Of a stretch of DNA of 64,000 bases, positions 46,499 through 58,273 are shown piece by piece (positions within the stretch are counted from its first letter, which is position 1; every line of letters begins with the position of its first letter). The DNA lies in the NCBI GenBank assembly GCA_011364925.1, contig RDOA01000004.1, positions 13,011 to 77,010 on the forward strand. The letters are read 5' to 3'. The translations under genes were made by a program, and so were the position numbers. The DNA is from Promethearchaeota archaeon. Lineage in GTDB: Archaea > Asgardarchaeota > Lokiarchaeia > Sigyniarchaeales > SOKP01. A model generated the notes under the pieces. It saw only the letters and a list, made by a program, of their open reading frames with translations, was not told where the DNA came from and did no database searches.

Positions 46499-48751
46499 TT
46501 ACGTAATTGGCAACTTGACTACAAATGTACTTCCTTTATTCCTACCGGCAGACTCAGCTCTGATTTCTCCATTGTGTGAATCAACTATCTCTTTCGAAAT
46601 ATAGAGGCCTAATCCCGATCCCTGAATGTCGATGTATTCATAACCTTCGCCATATCGCTCTAATTTACCAAATCTTGTGAATAACATATCCATTTCCTCT
46701 TTAGATATACCGATACCTGTATCACTTATTGACAATTCTGCAGAATCCTCATTCTTTTTTAACTTTACAAGTATCTCTCCATTTGGTGGTGTATTTTTAA
46801 TTGCGTTTGTAAGTAGATTTACGATTACTTGCTCAATCCGAACTTTATCCACTTTAATTTGAAAAGAGTCTGGAATTGCGAGCTTTAATTTAATATTTCT
46901 TTCTCTTATTAAATATATCAGTTCATGTGAAATCTCTCGTATTATAGCACTCAAATCATTTTGTTCTTTCATTAAGTGAAATTTGTCGTATTCGATTCGA
47001 GAGATATCGATTAGATTATCAACTAAATGTTTCAATCTTTTACCTCCTTTTTTAATTAGTTCTACGATCTCTAATTCATCTTTGCTCAATTTTCCCCCAT
47101 GTATTGTTAACAGAAGTTCGCTCCCTCCAGTCACGGAAACTAGAGGGGTTTTTAACTCATGAGATACTCTTGAAATTAAGTTTTTCCGGAGTTTATCTAG
47201 CTCTTTTAATTTCTTAACTTCTTCATTAATTAAGAATTCCGCTTCTTTTTTAACCGTGATATCTGTAAATAGCGCTTGGACAAACGTTTCATCATTAATT
47301 TTTAATAAAGCTGCTTGCAGATTCGTCCAAAAGATAGTCCCATCCTTCTTCTGAAGCTTTACATCAATTCTATGCATTTCCTCCCCCTTTATGAATCTTT
47401 TAAAGAGGTCAAGAATTTTATTTAATTGATCTGGATGTATAACTGAAAGATCCATAAATTTACGACCAAGAGCTTCTTCAAGAGAGAAACCAAACATATG
47501 TTCCGCTTTAGGGTTCAGATCTATTACTTCTCCTTGAGTATTGATTAATACGACAGAAAATGGAGTATTATCATAAAGATTGCGGTACTTTTTCTCTGAC
47601 TCTCTTAACTTCTTTTCTAAATTATATTTCTCTGTAATATCGATGAATGTACCTTCAATTCCATAAGGAATTCCTTGTTTGTCTAACATTAAATGAGAGT
47701 TCAACTGCACTGTTATCTTTTTACCTCGTTTTGTTAAGGAAGGGCAAATGTAATTTTTAGCATGACCATCTCTTAATATCTGTTCAATGTATTGTTCTCG
47801 ATCATCAGGAAATTGCCAAAATTCAGTAACCTTCTTACCAATGAGACTTTCTGAATCTTCATACTCTAAAATTTTATTATGAGCGGGATTATGATTTAAC
47901 ATAATACCTTCGAGTGTCACTTGATAAAATCCAACATCTAGATTATTAATCATATCGCGATATTTAAGTTCGGAATCTTTCAATTGCTCTTCTGCTTTCT
48001 TTCTTTCAGTTATGTCTTCAGTACGCACAATTATTAAATCTGGATGAACGTAACCGTAGTTAACAAGGAAGTATTTATCTTCATCAGAGAATTGAAATCT
48101 ATATTTCATTTCTCGTTTAAGATGCTTTTTTTCCGTTTGACATTGATGTAAATCATTTAAAATATCTAAACGATCTTTGTACATCTCTGATGCCTTGTTT
48201 CCAACAAAGTTAATAACATTTCCTTTAGATATATCTATTGCTGCGTTGTTAAAATCAATTAAAACAAAATCGCCATCTACTTTTTTCCAAATATAAGCAG
48301 GTATGGATCCCTCTTTAAATAGTGCTTTGAACATAGCAGTTGATGCGCTCAACTTTTTTTCCGATTTCTTCCGTTCTGTTATATTTTTTGCTATTCCTAA
48401 TATAGCATATATCTCACCGTTTTTCTTTAGTGGTATCCCATATGTTTCCAAGTAAAGATAATCGCCCGTTTTCGTTTTAACTTTATATTCGCTTTGAGCC
48501 GATTGTTTTCCTGTTTTTCTTATTTCTTTAGTAATTTTATACGCTTTGACTAAATTATCTCTATCTAAAAGATCTATAAAAGTAAGATTAGGGATTTCTT
48601 CTCTATCAAAACCTAAAGCAATTAATGTTAAATCACTAGCATCAAGGAAATTTCCATTCAGATCGTTCACATAAATCAAGTCTAACGAGTGTTCAAATAG
48701 CTCTTTGTACTTTTCTCTAACCTCTTCTCTATTATACATTTTTTTTTTCAC
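46499..48751 (-). CDS. Cytoplasmic sensor histidine kinase with four PAS domains
   Basis: Four PAS/PAC repeats (NITERK, DITERK, DITEK, DITVK), SHELKTPL, NLLTNAIK, DTGIG, GSGLGL; no TM. Confidence 0.92.
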   Translation of the reverse strand: MKKKMYNREEVREKYKELFEHSLDLIYVNDLNGNFLDASDLTLIALGFDREEIPNLTFIDLLDRDNLVKAYKITKEIRKTGKQSAQSEYKVKTKTGDYLYLETYGIPLKKNGEIYAILGIAKNITERKKSEKKLSASTAMFKALFKEGSIPAYIWKKVDGDFVLIDFNNAAIDISKGNVINFVGNKASEMYKDRLDILNDLHQCQTEKKHLKREMKYRFQFSDEDKYFLVNYGYVHPDLIIVRTEDITERKKAEEQLKDSELKYRDMINNLDVGFYQVTLEGIMLNHNPAHNKILEYEDSESLIGKKVTEFWQFPDDREQYIEQILRDGHAKNYICPSLTKRGKKITVQLNSHLMLDKQGIPYGIEGTFIDITEKYNLEKKLRESEKKYRNLYDNTPFSVVLINTQGEVIDLNPKAEHMFGFSLEEALGRKFMDLSVIHPDQLNKILDLFKRFIKGEEMHRIDVKLQKKDGTIFWTNLQAALLKINDETFVQALFTDITVKKEAEFLINEEVKKLKELDKLRKNLISRVSHELKTPLVSVTGGSELLLTIHGGKLSKDELEIVELIKKGGKRLKHLVDNLIDISRIEYDKFHLMKEQNDLSAIIREISHELIYLIRERNIKLKLAIPDSFQIKVDKVRIEQVIVNLLTNAIKNTPPNGEILVKLKKNEDSAELSISDTGIGISKEEMDMLFTRFGKLERYGEGYEYIDIQGSGLGLYISKEIVDSHNGEIRAESAGRNKGSTFVVKLPIT

Positions 48752-49318: not shown

Positions 49319-50613
49319 CAATATCCGAGAAAAGCGAGAAAATTAGAGATTTAAAAACAAAAATCTTAACTGGAAACCACGCCGCAGCACATGCGTTAAG
49401 ACAAGCTAAAGTTGGAGTTATAGCTGCTTATCCAATAACTCCACAAAGCCCTGTTGTAGAAAAAATTGCAGAATTCATATCTAAGGGAAAATTAAACGCC
49501 CGATTTGTAAAAGTAGAGTCAGAACATTCTGCTCTTGCTGTATGTTGTGCGGCTTCTGCAACTGGGTCTAGAGTTGGGACTGCAACTTCGTCACATGGAT
49601 TGATGCTAATGTATGAAATGCTACCTTGGGCATCTGGAAATAGATTACCAATTATTATTAACTTAGCAACTCGAGCTACTGGTGCACCATGGTCCGTTTG
49701 GACAGATCATCAGGATTTTATAACAATTCGTGATGTGGGTTGGATTCAGATGTTTTGTATGGATAACCAAGAGATTTACGATACAAATTTACAAGCCTTT
49801 AAAATAGCAGAAGATCCACGGGTTTTTCTTCCAGCGATCGTTGCTTATGACGGCTATATTTTATCTCATACAATGATGCCAGTATCAATAGAGAAACAAG
49901 ATGAAGTTGACAATTTTCTACCTCCATTAGAACATCATTACAACCTTTCTGACATTTCAGTTGTAAAGGGGATAGATCCAGTTACTACACCTTATTTAAG
50001 AGATAGAAGTTCTGAAGGTATAGCTCCAGGGTACTTTGAGTATCGCTATGCAATGCAAAAAGCTCTTGAAAATTCAATTGAAATTATTATGAAAGTACAT
50101 GATGAATTTTCAGAAAAATTTGGGCGTTCCTATGGAAATGGTATTTATAAAACATATTTAACTGAAGATGCTGAGGTTATTATATTCGCAATGGGATCAG
50201 TCGCGTCACAAGCAAGGAATGTTATCGGTCAGCTTCGGAAAGAAGGAATGAAAGTCGGATTAGTAAGTTTAAAACTATTTAGACCTTTCCCTGCTTCACA
50301 GTTGCGAGCTTTATTAAAGGGTGTAAAACTAGTAGTTGTGTTTGATCGAGATATCGGATATGGTTATGAGGGCGTTCTATCGTACGAATTGAAGGCAGCT
50401 TTGTACGGTTTAAAAGAATCGCCTTTTATTAAAGGATTTATTGTGGGATTGGGTGGTAGAGATATAACCGATCAACATATAAAGAAAGGAATAACCAAAG
50501 CACTCAAAGAATCAGAAAAAGGTATTATTTCTCACGAAACTGATTTCATAGGTACACAATTGGAGTTGTTAAGTGAATATGATGAAAAAGAATATTTTAA
50601 AGGAGGCTTATGA
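49315..50613 (+). CDS. porA: 2-oxoacid:ferredoxin oxidoreductase alpha subunit
   Basis: AYPITPQ, VESEHSA, TATSS.GL, FRPFP, GLGGRD. Confidence 0.92.
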   Translation: MTISEKSEKIRDLKTKILTGNHAAAHALRQAKVGVIAAYPITPQSPVVEKIAEFISKGKLNARFVKVESEHSALAVCCAASATGSRVGTATSSHGLMLMYEMLPWASGNRLPIIINLATRATGAPWSVWTDHQDFITIRDVGWIQMFCMDNQEIYDTNLQAFKIAEDPRVFLPAIVAYDGYILSHTMMPVSIEKQDEVDNFLPPLEHHYNLSDISVVKGIDPVTTPYLRDRSSEGIAPGYFEYRYAMQKALENSIEIIMKVHDEFSEKFGRSYGNGIYKTYLTEDAEVIIFAMGSVASQARNVIGQLRKEGMKVGLVSLKLFRPFPASQLRALLKGVKLVVVFDRDIGYGYEGVLSYELKAALYGLKESPFIKGFIVGLGGRDITDQHIKKGITKALKESEKGIISHETDFIGTQLELLSEYDEKEYFKGGL

Positions 50614-51515
50614 AAATGGTTAAAACGATGGATCTTCCCGAAGAAGAATATATTCTTCCTGGAACCAGAGCTTGTGCAGGATGTTCTATGGCGCTAATTT
50701 ACAGGATAGCCTTAAAAGCATTAGGTCCAAACACGATAATTACTGTTCCAGCATCGTGTTTAACTGTACTCCATGGAATGCAAGGATTTTGTACAACCAA
50801 AGTTTCGGTACTTCACACCCCTTTTGCCACTACAGGCGCATCAGCATCGGGTATCGTAGCGTCTCTTGAAGACAAGGGATTAGCAGATGAAATTAATGTC
50901 GTAGCGTTTGCAGGTGATGGAGGTACGGTTGATATTGGAATCCAAAGCTTAAGTGGAGCGGTTGAACGAGGTACAAATTTTATTTTTGCATGCTACGATA
51001 ATGAAGCTTATATGAATACAGGAGTTCAGAGGAGTGGAAGTACCCCGCCAGGAGCTTTTAGCACCACTACGCCAAATGGGAAAACGGGGTATAAGAAAAA
51101 TATGGCTAAAATTCTAGAAGCTCATGGTATACCATATGTAGCAACAGCAATATCCTCTTACCCTCTTGATTTATATCAGAAATTTAGAAACGCGGTAGAA
51201 ATTAAGGGTCCAAAGTACATCCACATTCTCGCTCCATGTCCTCCTGGTTGGGGGTATAATCCAAAAGACTCAATTGAAATCGGGAGACTAGCGGTTCAAA
51301 CTGGTTTTTGGCCTTTATACGAAGTTATCGAAGGAAAATTTATCTTATCAAAAGATAGTCAAAAATTTATAGATCCTGCTAAGCGAAAACCTATTACTGA
51401 TTATTTAAAAGCTCAAAAAAGGTTTAAGAGTATATCTGATAAAGAAATTAAGCAATATCAGAATTATATAGAAGCACAATGGAATGAAATTGAAAAAAGA
51501 ATTAAAAATGAATAG
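50610..51515 (+). CDS. porB: 2-oxoacid:ferredoxin oxidoreductase beta subunit
   Basis: ACAGC, GDGG..DIG, YDNEAYMNTG.Q.S, PCP.GW. Confidence 0.92.
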   Translation: MKMVKTMDLPEEEYILPGTRACAGCSMALIYRIALKALGPNTIITVPASCLTVLHGMQGFCTTKVSVLHTPFATTGASASGIVASLEDKGLADEINVVAFAGDGGTVDIGIQSLSGAVERGTNFIFACYDNEAYMNTGVQRSGSTPPGAFSTTTPNGKTGYKKNMAKILEAHGIPYVATAISSYPLDLYQKFRNAVEIKGPKYIHILAPCPPGWGYNPKDSIEIGRLAVQTGFWPLYEVIEGKFILSKDSQKFIDPAKRKPITDYLKAQKRFKSISDKEIKQYQNYIEAQWNEIEKRIKNE

Positions 51516-51634: not shown

Positions 51635-52420
51635 ATGCTAAAGACATATATTTTCGACGATGCTAATAAGAAATGGATTGAAGAGGATAAAAGCCTATTG
51701 TACCACGATCTCTGTGCAATTTTAGATGAAGAACATAACATTATTTATGTATGGAATGGACCAAAAAGTTCTCAAGAAAGGTTAAAAAGGGGATATGAAC
51801 AATTAGAAAAGTTAATGTCCACTTACCCTACAATCAATTTTCAATTATCTATATTAAAAAAAAAAATCCCAAAGCACATTCAGGATAAAATTGACTTAAT
51901 GTTAGGGGAAATTAACCAAAAGGAAGATAAAGAGTTTTATAAATTTAGCCGTTTTTCGACTTTAAGATTGTATTTAATTTTATTATTGATCTCAACAATT
52001 TTACCTTTTTTTTTGCTTTTAAACTTAACATCATCACTATCATGGTATAAAATTGGGATGAATTTTGAGATTGGAGCAGATGAGTATAATATATGGTTAA
52101 CAATATCCTCTATATTAACAATCATTATTCTAATCTCTTTCAGTATTATGATAATTATAGGTATAATTGAAATAGAGTACCAAGTTATAGTTTTATCCTC
52201 ATTAGGCACACTTGTTTGCATCGGTTTATCTATTTATTTTCAGCAGGGAATATTTTTGTTTCTGTTTCAAACGGGATATTCCTCTTCAATTTATTACATT
52301 AGCCAAAAAGATATCATTGAGTTTTTAATTATAGTTTCTTTAGGAATATTTGTTTTTGAAATTCCAAATATTTTAAAACTTATTTCATTCTTAAGAATTT
52401 ATAGGAATTTCGTTTTTTAA
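51635..52420 (+). CDS. Gelsolin-like N-terminal domain fused to a four-helix membrane domain
   Basis: L..HDLCAILDEEHNIIYVWNGPKSSQERL resembles the gelsolin-repeat core; four hydrophobic segments in the C-terminal ~150 aa. Confidence 0.6.
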   Translation: MLKTYIFDDANKKWIEEDKSLLYHDLCAILDEEHNIIYVWNGPKSSQERLKRGYEQLEKLMSTYPTINFQLSILKKKIPKHIQDKIDLMLGEINQKEDKEFYKFSRFSTLRLYLILLLISTILPFFLLLNLTSSLSWYKIGMNFEIGADEYNIWLTISSILTIIILISFSIMIIIGIIEIEYQVIVLSSLGTLVCIGLSIYFQQGIFLFLFQTGYSSSIYYISQKDIIEFLIIVSLGIFVFEIPNILKLISFLRIYRNFVF

Positions 52421-52472: not shown

Positions 52473-53354
52473 ATGGCAGAAGCAGCAGAAATTCTTCCAG
52501 AGCTGGAAAAAGAAGATTTGAGAATTTTAATGGCAATTGAAATAGGAATGAAAAGATCCGAATATGTAACAGTAAATAATATCAAATTCTACTCTAGATA
52601 TCCAATGGAAGAAACTTTATTTCGCCTTAAAAGGGTTCATAAGTGGAATTTAACAGTTCGAGACTCTTCTAAAAACGAAATTGCCTATACACTTAATTCA
52701 ATTGGATATGATGTGCTAGGACTTCATACATTGGTCGAAAAAAATGTAATAAGTCAATTAGGACCATTAATTGGTAAAGGAAAAGAATCAGATGTTTACG
52801 GATGCATGGATGAAAATAATAATATATACGCTTTGAAAATCTATAGGATAGGTAGGACCAGTTTTAAAAATATTAGAAAGCTTAGAAGTTTTCAAGGAGA
52901 AAGGAAACACATTTCTTGGTTATACGTTAATAGGCTAGCCGCTAAAAAAGAATTTAAAGCTTTAGGTAAAATATACAAACTTAAATTAAATACCCCCAAA
53001 CCCATTGGTTTTAATAGACATTTGATTGTAATGTCTTATTTGAGAGGAAAAGAATTAGCTTATATCCAACATTTAAGAAATCCAAGTAAAATTTTTAATA
53101 GGATCATTAAACAGATGAAAATTATTTATCAGAAAGCGAACATGATTCATGGTGATCTTGGAGAATTTAATATTATCTTAGATCATAAAGAAAAGATATT
53201 AATTATTGATTGGCTTCAATGGATTCCTTCAGATCATCCAAATGCTAACTCAATTTTGGAAAGAGATGTCGAGAATGTATGCAATTTCTTTAAAAAAAAA
53301 TACAATGTGGAAAGTAACCCTACCAAAATTATTCAATCATTTTATAAAAAATAA
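52473..53354 (+). CDS. rio2: RIO2-type Ser/Thr kinase
   Basis: N-terminal wHTH, GYD, GKGKESDVY, R.GRTSF, IHGDL.EFNI, IDW.Q. Confidence 0.92.
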   Translation: MAEAAEILPELEKEDLRILMAIEIGMKRSEYVTVNNIKFYSRYPMEETLFRLKRVHKWNLTVRDSSKNEIAYTLNSIGYDVLGLHTLVEKNVISQLGPLIGKGKESDVYGCMDENNNIYALKIYRIGRTSFKNIRKLRSFQGERKHISWLYVNRLAAKKEFKALGKIYKLKLNTPKPIGFNRHLIVMSYLRGKELAYIQHLRNPSKIFNRIIKQMKIIYQKANMIHGDLGEFNIILDHKEKILIIDWLQWIPSDHPNANSILERDVENVCNFFKKKYNVESNPTKIIQSFYKK

Positions 53355-57946: not shown

Positions 57947-58273
57947 GTGAATTCAATGGCTAAAAAAAAGAATGTACCAGATGAAACTGAAGTGGAAGAC
58001 GTTCCAGATGGAAAAATGGATGAAGATGGAGACGAGATACTGGATTTATACGATGAAAGAGATAATCTTGAGGAAGATCTTGATTACGATCTGAGCGAAA
58101 TTGAGGATGAAATGTTAGCAGACGAGACTGAAGACGAAGAATTCGGAATGGAAGTTGATGATGTTGTTAAAATGTTGAGAAGTGTCAAGTGTGATCCATG
58201 TCCTGGTTTAAAGAGCAAACCAGGCTGTCAAATTGCTCACGATTATGGTTGTCCAAAACCAAATAAGCCATAA
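57947..58273 (+). CDS. Small, highly acidic protein with C-terminal Cys/His motif
   Basis: D/E-rich stretch of about 60 aa, then CDPC-x8-C-x3-H-x3-C. Confidence 0.7.
   Translation: MNSMAKKKNVPDETEVEDVPDGKMDEDGDEILDLYDERDNLEEDLDYDLSEIEDEMLADETEDEEFGMEVDDVVKMLRSVKCDPCPGLKSKPGCQIAHDYGCPKPNKP

Follow-up and report, generated by a model that had tools for sequence, protein, structure and literature searches.

The gene considered here, paralogue A of its family, occupies positions 51635-52420 (+) of the window (the whole stretch of 64,000 nucleotides that was analysed), starts with ATG and encodes a protein of 261 aa in which a gelsolin-fold domain precedes four transmembrane (TM) helices. The peptide quoted in the initial annotation is exactly residues 20-57 of this protein. 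Upstream lies the last gene of a 2-oxoacid:ferredoxin oxidoreductase operon (50610-51515, +), which was identified by reading its sequence and is kept at this place in the same family of genomes, while the RIO2 kinase gene (52473-53354, +), the kept downstream neighbour, starts 52 nt past the stop codon. A scan for bacterial-type promoters gave results at chance level. Elsewhere in the window, an antisense gene for a multi-PAS histidine kinase (46499-48751, -) separates the gamma gene of the oxidoreductase operon from the delta gene, while the operon runs without interruption in L048, L050 and L055, and a highly acidic open reading frame of 108 aa with a four-Cys stretch at its end (57947-58273, +) has no Pfam match.

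The assembly was examined through contigs of separate sequencing runs. Single contigs of runs X1 and X3, which come from different studies, cover the whole gene, and contigs of runs X2 and X7 cover the domain junction, with no frameshift in the gene; among these spanning runs, one may be the source of the window itself. Together with more than 100 intact full-length orthologues, these contigs show that the fusion did not arise by misassembly.

Fold and membrane topology

Residues 1-92 (51635-51910, +) form the cytoplasmic gelsolin-fold domain, with conserved W14, E16, H24, D25, D31, W40, G42 and P79. In the AlphaFold2 model of the window protein (mean pLDDT 90, whole-protein pTM 0.61), strands at 2-8, 13-16, 26-31, 36-41 and 70-73, a helix at 47-63 and another helix from residue 80 build the fold of the superfamily, a mixed beta-sheet onto which a long helix and a short C-terminal one pack. 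All 50 top rows of the Foldseek search were gelsolin-family chains, the best being ProGel of Thorarchaeota (7c2f_B, E 3.6e-5, TM 0.69 by target), and ProGel 7c2f was also the best match by VIA (Z 10.3, rmsd 2.6 Å, 85/88 residues aligned). The family profile matched villin and gelsolin chains at E values from 9e-12 (villin) to 1e-9 and ProGel 7c2f_B at 1.2e-5. The D-W-G motif (D25 and D31, W40, G42) is intact and 85-100% conserved. The Pfam model PF00626 matched 46/116 relatives, and the window protein at E 0.003-0.014, under the curated cut-off. This single-protein score would favour a chance likeness or an assembly artefact, but that explanation is refuted by the spanning contigs of independent runs, the intact orthologues and the profile and structure matches to the gelsolin family, and we give it practically no weight. 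The N-terminal domain is a true gelsolin-type domain and a member of the gelsolin-homology superfamily, and the gelsolin likeness proposed in the initial annotation was confirmed by the structure check that it had called for.

The domain is followed by a charged linker (residues 93-106; 51911-51952, +) that ends in the conserved basic residues K103 and R106. Model confidence is lowest at residues 91-100 (pLDDT 58), which together with the whole-protein pTM of 0.61 suggests a flexible hinge. TM helix 1 (residues 107-136; 51953-52042, +) has its hydrophobic core at 112-132 and leads into outer loop 1 (residues 137-154; 52043-52096, +), a short beta-hairpin with conserved W137 and W154. TM helix 2 (residues 155-179; 52097-52171, +) and TM helix 3 (residues 183-203; 52181-52243, +), in which G197 and Y201 are conserved, precede outer loop 2 (residues 204-226; 52244-52312, +), where the hydrophobic motif GIFLFLF and a strand are conserved to the same degree as the gelsolin core. 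TM helix 4 (residues 227-255; 52313-52399, +) closes the protein with a short basic cytoplasmic end and no long tail.

The four hydrophobic helices first read from the sequence were recovered both by the model and by hydropathy, with segments near 112-132, 160-178, 184-202 and 232-250. Exactly four TM segments were counted in 107/116 family members, none of the 116 has a segment in the N-domain, and every full-length member carries the fusion to four TM helices. Hydropathy revealed no hydrophobic N-terminal signal in the window protein, and in 116/116 members Lys and Arg are commoner on the side of the N and C termini (mean 7.7) than in loops 1 and 3 (mean 1.7), a positive-inside bias that places both termini in the cytoplasm. 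The earlier expectation of a cytoplasm-facing domain without a signal peptide thus held.

Folded alone, the TM part gave four helices in an up-down bundle, plus small beta elements on the outer side (pLDDT 93.6, pTM 0.86). Searches with this module in Pfam, PDB sequences, Foldseek and VIA found no named family; there was no Foldseek match at E ≤ 0.001, the VIA rows were generic soluble or designed four-helix bundles, and the ESM Atlas returned nothing beyond the family's own cluster. An unmatched module is not proof of a new fold. The eukaryotic tetraspans (claudin/TARP, tetraspanin, MARVEL and connexin) share with the window family four TM helices, both termini inside and, ahead of TM2 and TM4, small beta elements on the outside, but neither sequence nor structure gave a significant match between them. 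To our knowledge, none of these tetraspans has a gelsolin domain.

Distribution, gene context and paralogue B

We found 142 homologues, full-length for the most part, and all the named ones are Asgard, mainly Lokiarchaeota/Promethearchaeota, in agreement with the Asgard origin assumed at the outset. Counting strong matches (E below 1e-18), the family (paralogue A or B) is present in about 128/153 other genomes of the order, across all four families; this distribution check, also proposed earlier, shows that the fusion is conserved across relatives. Outside the order we saw no genuine copy; the 19 weak matches inspected there, taken from a sample of 20 genomes, are proteins without TM helices. 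The lone strong match outside the order (G058, L045/L116) was rejected as a chimeric or mis-binned contig, since it is partial and continues into an EamA transporter that shares 61% identity with one of the window genome; on this 8-kb contig, binned outside the order, the partial gelsolin-TM sequence (L045:1829-3118, -) is in frame with the transporter. One homologue, P0121 (384 aa), has about 120 additional C-terminal residues with weak matches to membrane-protein families.

In the gelsolin-domain tree, the domains of both TM-fused paralogues split from the soluble gelsolins of the window genome with 99/99 support, though the alignment is short, the bootstrap rough and one soluble long-branch sequence falls inside the TM-fused branch. 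This grouping is consistent with one old fusion followed by duplication. A 278-aa four-TM protein of the window genome (C11:68030-68863) was rejected as a paralogue because its N-domain is different.

The orthologue in L. ossiferum is NEF87_002464, and P. syntrophicum has the orthologue DSAG12_00505 and the paralogue DSAG12_01827. Both genes of strain MK-D1 are transcribed (RPKM 157 and 176), and both are listed as hypothetical, without an ESP flag (PMC7015854); DSAG12_00505 was never flagged as gelsolin. The Pfam gelsolin model misses the cultured-strain genes even at E 1, which would explain their absence from published gelsolin counts.

The gene has also been lost. It is missing from G183 (99% complete), where porB and RIO2 are direct neighbours, and no match came from four genomes of genus g6 (89-100% complete); Lokiactin is present in the three gene-lacking genomes that were checked for actin. 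The gene upstream of RIO2 in genus g6, which encodes a protein with three to four TM helices, was rejected as unrelated to the gelsolin/four-TM family. This protein (L137:834-1361, +; L139:889-1362, +) has no Pfam match and fills the slot 5' of RIO2.

Paralogue A lies between the oxidoreductase operon and RIO2 in the family of the window genome, and between TFIIB and a DNA methylase in the cultured strains; at neither place does it have cytoskeletal neighbours, the flanking genes being metabolic or housekeeping. In 16/16 loci from three families (L043, L044, L047, L049, L051-L053 and L104-L112), paralogue B has a gene for a CDP-alcohol phosphatidyltransferase at most 4 kb away, and the transferase is annotated in MK-D1 as archaetidylinositol phosphate synthase. 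The orientation of paralogue B and the synthase varies, so this linkage may be inherited gene order. Paralogue B was not found in the window genome, which has the synthase/riboflavin-kinase block (G000 C11:1659-3058). Near paralogue B in family f4, L044:7861-9126 (+) and L051:1246-3642 (-) encode soluble gelsolin-domain proteins with long charged extensions.

Helix face, calcium sites and cytoplasmic tail

The long helix (residues 46-63; 51770-51823, +) has a conserved buried face, while its exposed face is charged and variable (Q47, E48, K51, R52, E55, E58 and K59). Helix positions were numbered from the Trp of the W-x-G motif. ProGel and the window protein align without a gap from W40 to P65, and ProGel has L, F, L and M at +7, +8, +11 and +12 where the window protein has Q47, E48, K51 and R52. 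We infer from PMC7444086 and from G1 that these ProGel residues contact the actin cleft. Among 115 close family members, 85% have a charged residue at +11 and 84% at +12, and large hydrophobics occur there in 1% and 5%, respectively. Large hydrophobics occupy both positions in 17/17 soluble ProGel-like proteins and in domain 1 of Thor 2DGel3, and position +11 in 16/18 soluble Asgard domains from other orders and in 6/9 other one-domain-type soluble gelsolins of the window genome. The entropy of the helix face is 2.3 bits, versus 1.2-1.3 for the strand core and outer loop 2, and in a comparison over a similar identity range it is 1.03 bits versus 0.29 in the soluble ProGel-like proteins. Conservation concentrates on W14, E16, H24, D25, D31 and outer loop 2. 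Basic residues are favoured at positions 44, 47, 49, 51 and 52 (46-79% of the family), and the net charge of the N-domain is not positive (family mean -1.6).

Domain 1 of Loki2DGel has Thr/Gly at +11/+12 yet binds actin, so the hydrophobic rule is not absolute; Lys or Arg at these positions was seen in none of the solved cleft binders that were compared. The positions that are small or hydrophobic in G1 presumably correspond to R52, E55, Q56, E58 and K59 here. Judged from these residues, the window protein has lost the canonical face that soluble relatives presumably use to hold actin. ProGel itself is an actin binder that also decorates filaments inside cells (PMC7444086), with weak, calcium-free binding, and the Asgard gelsolin types ProGel, 1DGelX and 2DGel all act on actin in the studies surveyed.

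Neither calcium site is complete. At the type II site D25 is kept and +9 is R49 (K/R in 85/90 close members), whereas the orthologues of L. ossiferum and MK-D1 have Glu at +9, and at the type I site M61 replaces the Asp at +21. The window protein has a single gelsolin domain, below the two or more of calcium-regulated gelsolins, and no LKKT-like tetrapeptide was found in it.

The window genome has two Lokiactin-type genes that are 82% identical (C16:85257-86399 and C32:45689-46828; L058 and L059), of which the second copy was seen again in several genomes of the genus, and three further, more distant actin-related genes; the N-terminus of its Lokiactin is acidic. A broad profile detected about 12 other gelsolin-like ORFs in this genome (G000; contigs C27, C31, C36, C38, C41, C47, C54, C55, C61, C90, C91 and C112) versus 7 by Pfam, and three of them (C38, C47 and C55) are likewise without a hydrophobic +11.

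Orthologues of the Promethearchaeum/Lokiarchaeum branch (L041:5517-6365, -; L042:6427-7284, -; alignment A8) carry a conserved C-terminal cytoplasmic tail, in which a short amphipathic stretch is followed by P[TS]IL[RQ]D...VELKEI, a pattern conserved in 19 sequences. The motif resembles the Asgard LKDV motif with a spacing longer than that of WH2, and the Pfam WH2 model (PF02205) gives no match to the tail. The window copy is without this tail, and a search of the window genome with the tail profile gave no convincing relative. As a lead, the WH2-like tail in the cultured strains may point back towards actin. In another branch the WH2-like tail is replaced by an amphipathic one rich in Trp and Lys.

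Possible roles and relation to known gelsolins

The window protein is closest to ProGel (7c2f chain B, PMC7444086), with which it shares a single domain of the same size and fold, 18% identity, the same helix register, the D-W-G motif and the lack of calcium sites; but ProGel is a free protein of 94 residues with L/F/L/M exposed, whereas the window domain presents Q/E/K/R and is fused to four TM helices. Like 1DGelX (PMC7444086), it has one N-terminal gelsolin domain and a C-terminal module that possibly sets location or function. The X of 1DGelX, however, is a predicted soluble coiled coil and the extension here an integral membrane bundle, and the 1DGelX-like proteins of the window genome keep F-I on the helix, unlike the window protein. 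With 2DGel (7c2g, 7c2h, 7whf, 7whg; PMC9433394) it has the domain fold in common, and the tail seen in orthologues from the cultured strains is similar to the WH2-like linker motif of 2DGel, but 2DGel has two domains and calcium sites and severs or caps actin, in contrast to the one domain, incomplete sites and missing WH2-like motif of the window protein. The window protein is therefore not ProGel, 1DGelX or 2DGel as defined. Sec23/Sec24 likewise place at membranes a gelsolin fold that is not known to bind actin, but they are peripheral multi-domain coat proteins without TM helices, and no Sec23/24 chain was among the top fold or sequence matches. The Asgard gelsolins described in the literature searched are all soluble, as were those known to the initial annotation, and a TM-fused gelsolin was not described there, though an earlier mention in an Asgard COG table is possible. 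The architecture is real and apparently undescribed.

We consider the gelsolin/four-TM protein a candidate actin-membrane linker of Lokiarchaea. The idea of an actin anchor put forward earlier is partly supported, while the helix face, calcium sites, gene context and gene loss run contrary to it. Our best reading, held tentatively, is that the protein engages actin weakly by a non-canonical surface, as a calcium-independent membrane adaptor. In the computed topology the four helices cross the membrane with two short conserved loops outside, and the ProGel-like domain sits in the cytoplasm on its probably flexible charged linker; there it would offer Lokiactin filaments beneath the membrane a calcium-independent contact of low affinity. 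Such a domain would lack the capping, severing or sequestering activity of G1, ProGel or 2DGel. The contact surface could combine the basic residues at which the long helix starts (44-52) with the conserved strand edge (14-31), and outer loop 2, which is conserved, together with polar residues of the TM helices might cluster the protein with itself or with a membrane partner and so provide avidity. In the Promethearchaeum/Lokiarchaeum branch the WH2-like tail motif may supply a second actin contact. The role would be accessory, not that of a sole anchor.

Several observations argue for this adaptor. Its fold and closest match are those of an actin-binding Asgard protein, ProGel; its predicted topology is cytoplasmic in all members counted; it forms one old, well-supported lineage (on a short alignment) that is kept in most genomes of the order and transcribed in MK-D1; basic residues are favoured at the helix start and the Lokiactin N-terminus is acidic; and the conserved tail motif resembles LKDV. 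Moreover, Lokiactin co-precipitates five gelsolin-domain proteins, in an assay which, according to its authors, disfavours membrane proteins (10.1101/2025.11.30.690169). Against it, the strand core, outer loop 2 and the corresponding face of soluble ProGel-like proteins are all better conserved than the helix face, the net charge of the domain is not positive, the gene is flanked by metabolic or housekeeping genes and near-complete relatives with Lokiactin have lost it, while the window copy has neither tail nor LKKT-like motif and the Pfam WH2 model misses the tail. A close rival, to which we lend somewhat less credence, is that the fold has been repurposed as in Sec23/Sec24 and binds a protein other than actin or the head groups of anionic inositol lipids, making the protein an accessory subunit, lipid sensor or signal relay within a membrane complex. 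The degenerate presumed actin face and the conservation of the strand residues and outer loop 2 fit this explanation, as do the lack of cytoskeletal neighbours of paralogue A and the constant proximity of paralogue B to the phosphatidyltransferase gene, and the Sec23a gelsolin domain is not known as an actin binder (PMC7444086). Yet every Asgard gelsolin type tested in the studies surveyed acts on actin, the synthase linkage concerns a paralogue that varies in orientation and was not found in the window genome, and the analysis identified no alternative partner. The arginine finger of the Sec23 type, which we take to lie near the C-terminal helix (residues 75-90 here), has no counterpart either, as no conserved Arg occurs in that range.

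A classical membrane-anchored capping gelsolin, the strong form of the original idea, is unlikely. The gap-free register with ProGel as best fold match, the intact D-W-G motif, the weak and calcium-free binding of ProGel itself and the Thr/Gly of Loki2DGel, by which large hydrophobics are not universal among binders, speak for it. They are set against the near absence from the window family of the +11/+12 hydrophobics found throughout the soluble ProGel-like proteins, the charged or polar residues at the G1-type positions and the missing type I and type II calcium ligands; the best sequence matches, besides, fall mostly on third and not on first repeats, those of gelsolin, villin, adseverin and CapG. 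More improbable still is that the protein forms a small oligomeric subunit of a channel or transporter, gated by the cytoplasmic gelsolin domain: the tetraspan form, with its polar helix residues N130, S158, E242, P244 and N245 and its conserved hydrophobic outer loop, would suit it, but the TM helices are just moderately conserved, and the TM part has no Pfam family and, among structures, resembles generic four-helix bundles only.

Lokiarchaea have actin-filled protrusions and crawl (PMC9834061, PMC13716822), and the literature surveyed names no protein that fastens Lokiactin to the membrane. A bolder extension of the adaptor reading, which we rate as rather unlikely, is that the family is a direct integral-membrane receptor of Lokiactin filaments that shapes protrusions, the gelsolin head and WH2-like tail of the cultured strains rebuilding the 2DGel arrangement; this would be an archaeal design of actin-membrane linker without a eukaryotic counterpart. 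The range within one order and the occasional loss limit the bearing on the eukaryotic ancestor. The analysis provides a named, testable gene in both cultured Lokiarchaeia (NEF87_002464; DSAG12_00505 and DSAG12_01827), and tests are feasible with existing antibodies, proteomes and actin assays. If actin binding is true, the family would be a membrane-embedded actin regulator of a design that we did not find described; if the protein does not bind actin, it would represent a prokaryotic gelsolin fold turned from actin to membrane work, like Sec23/24.
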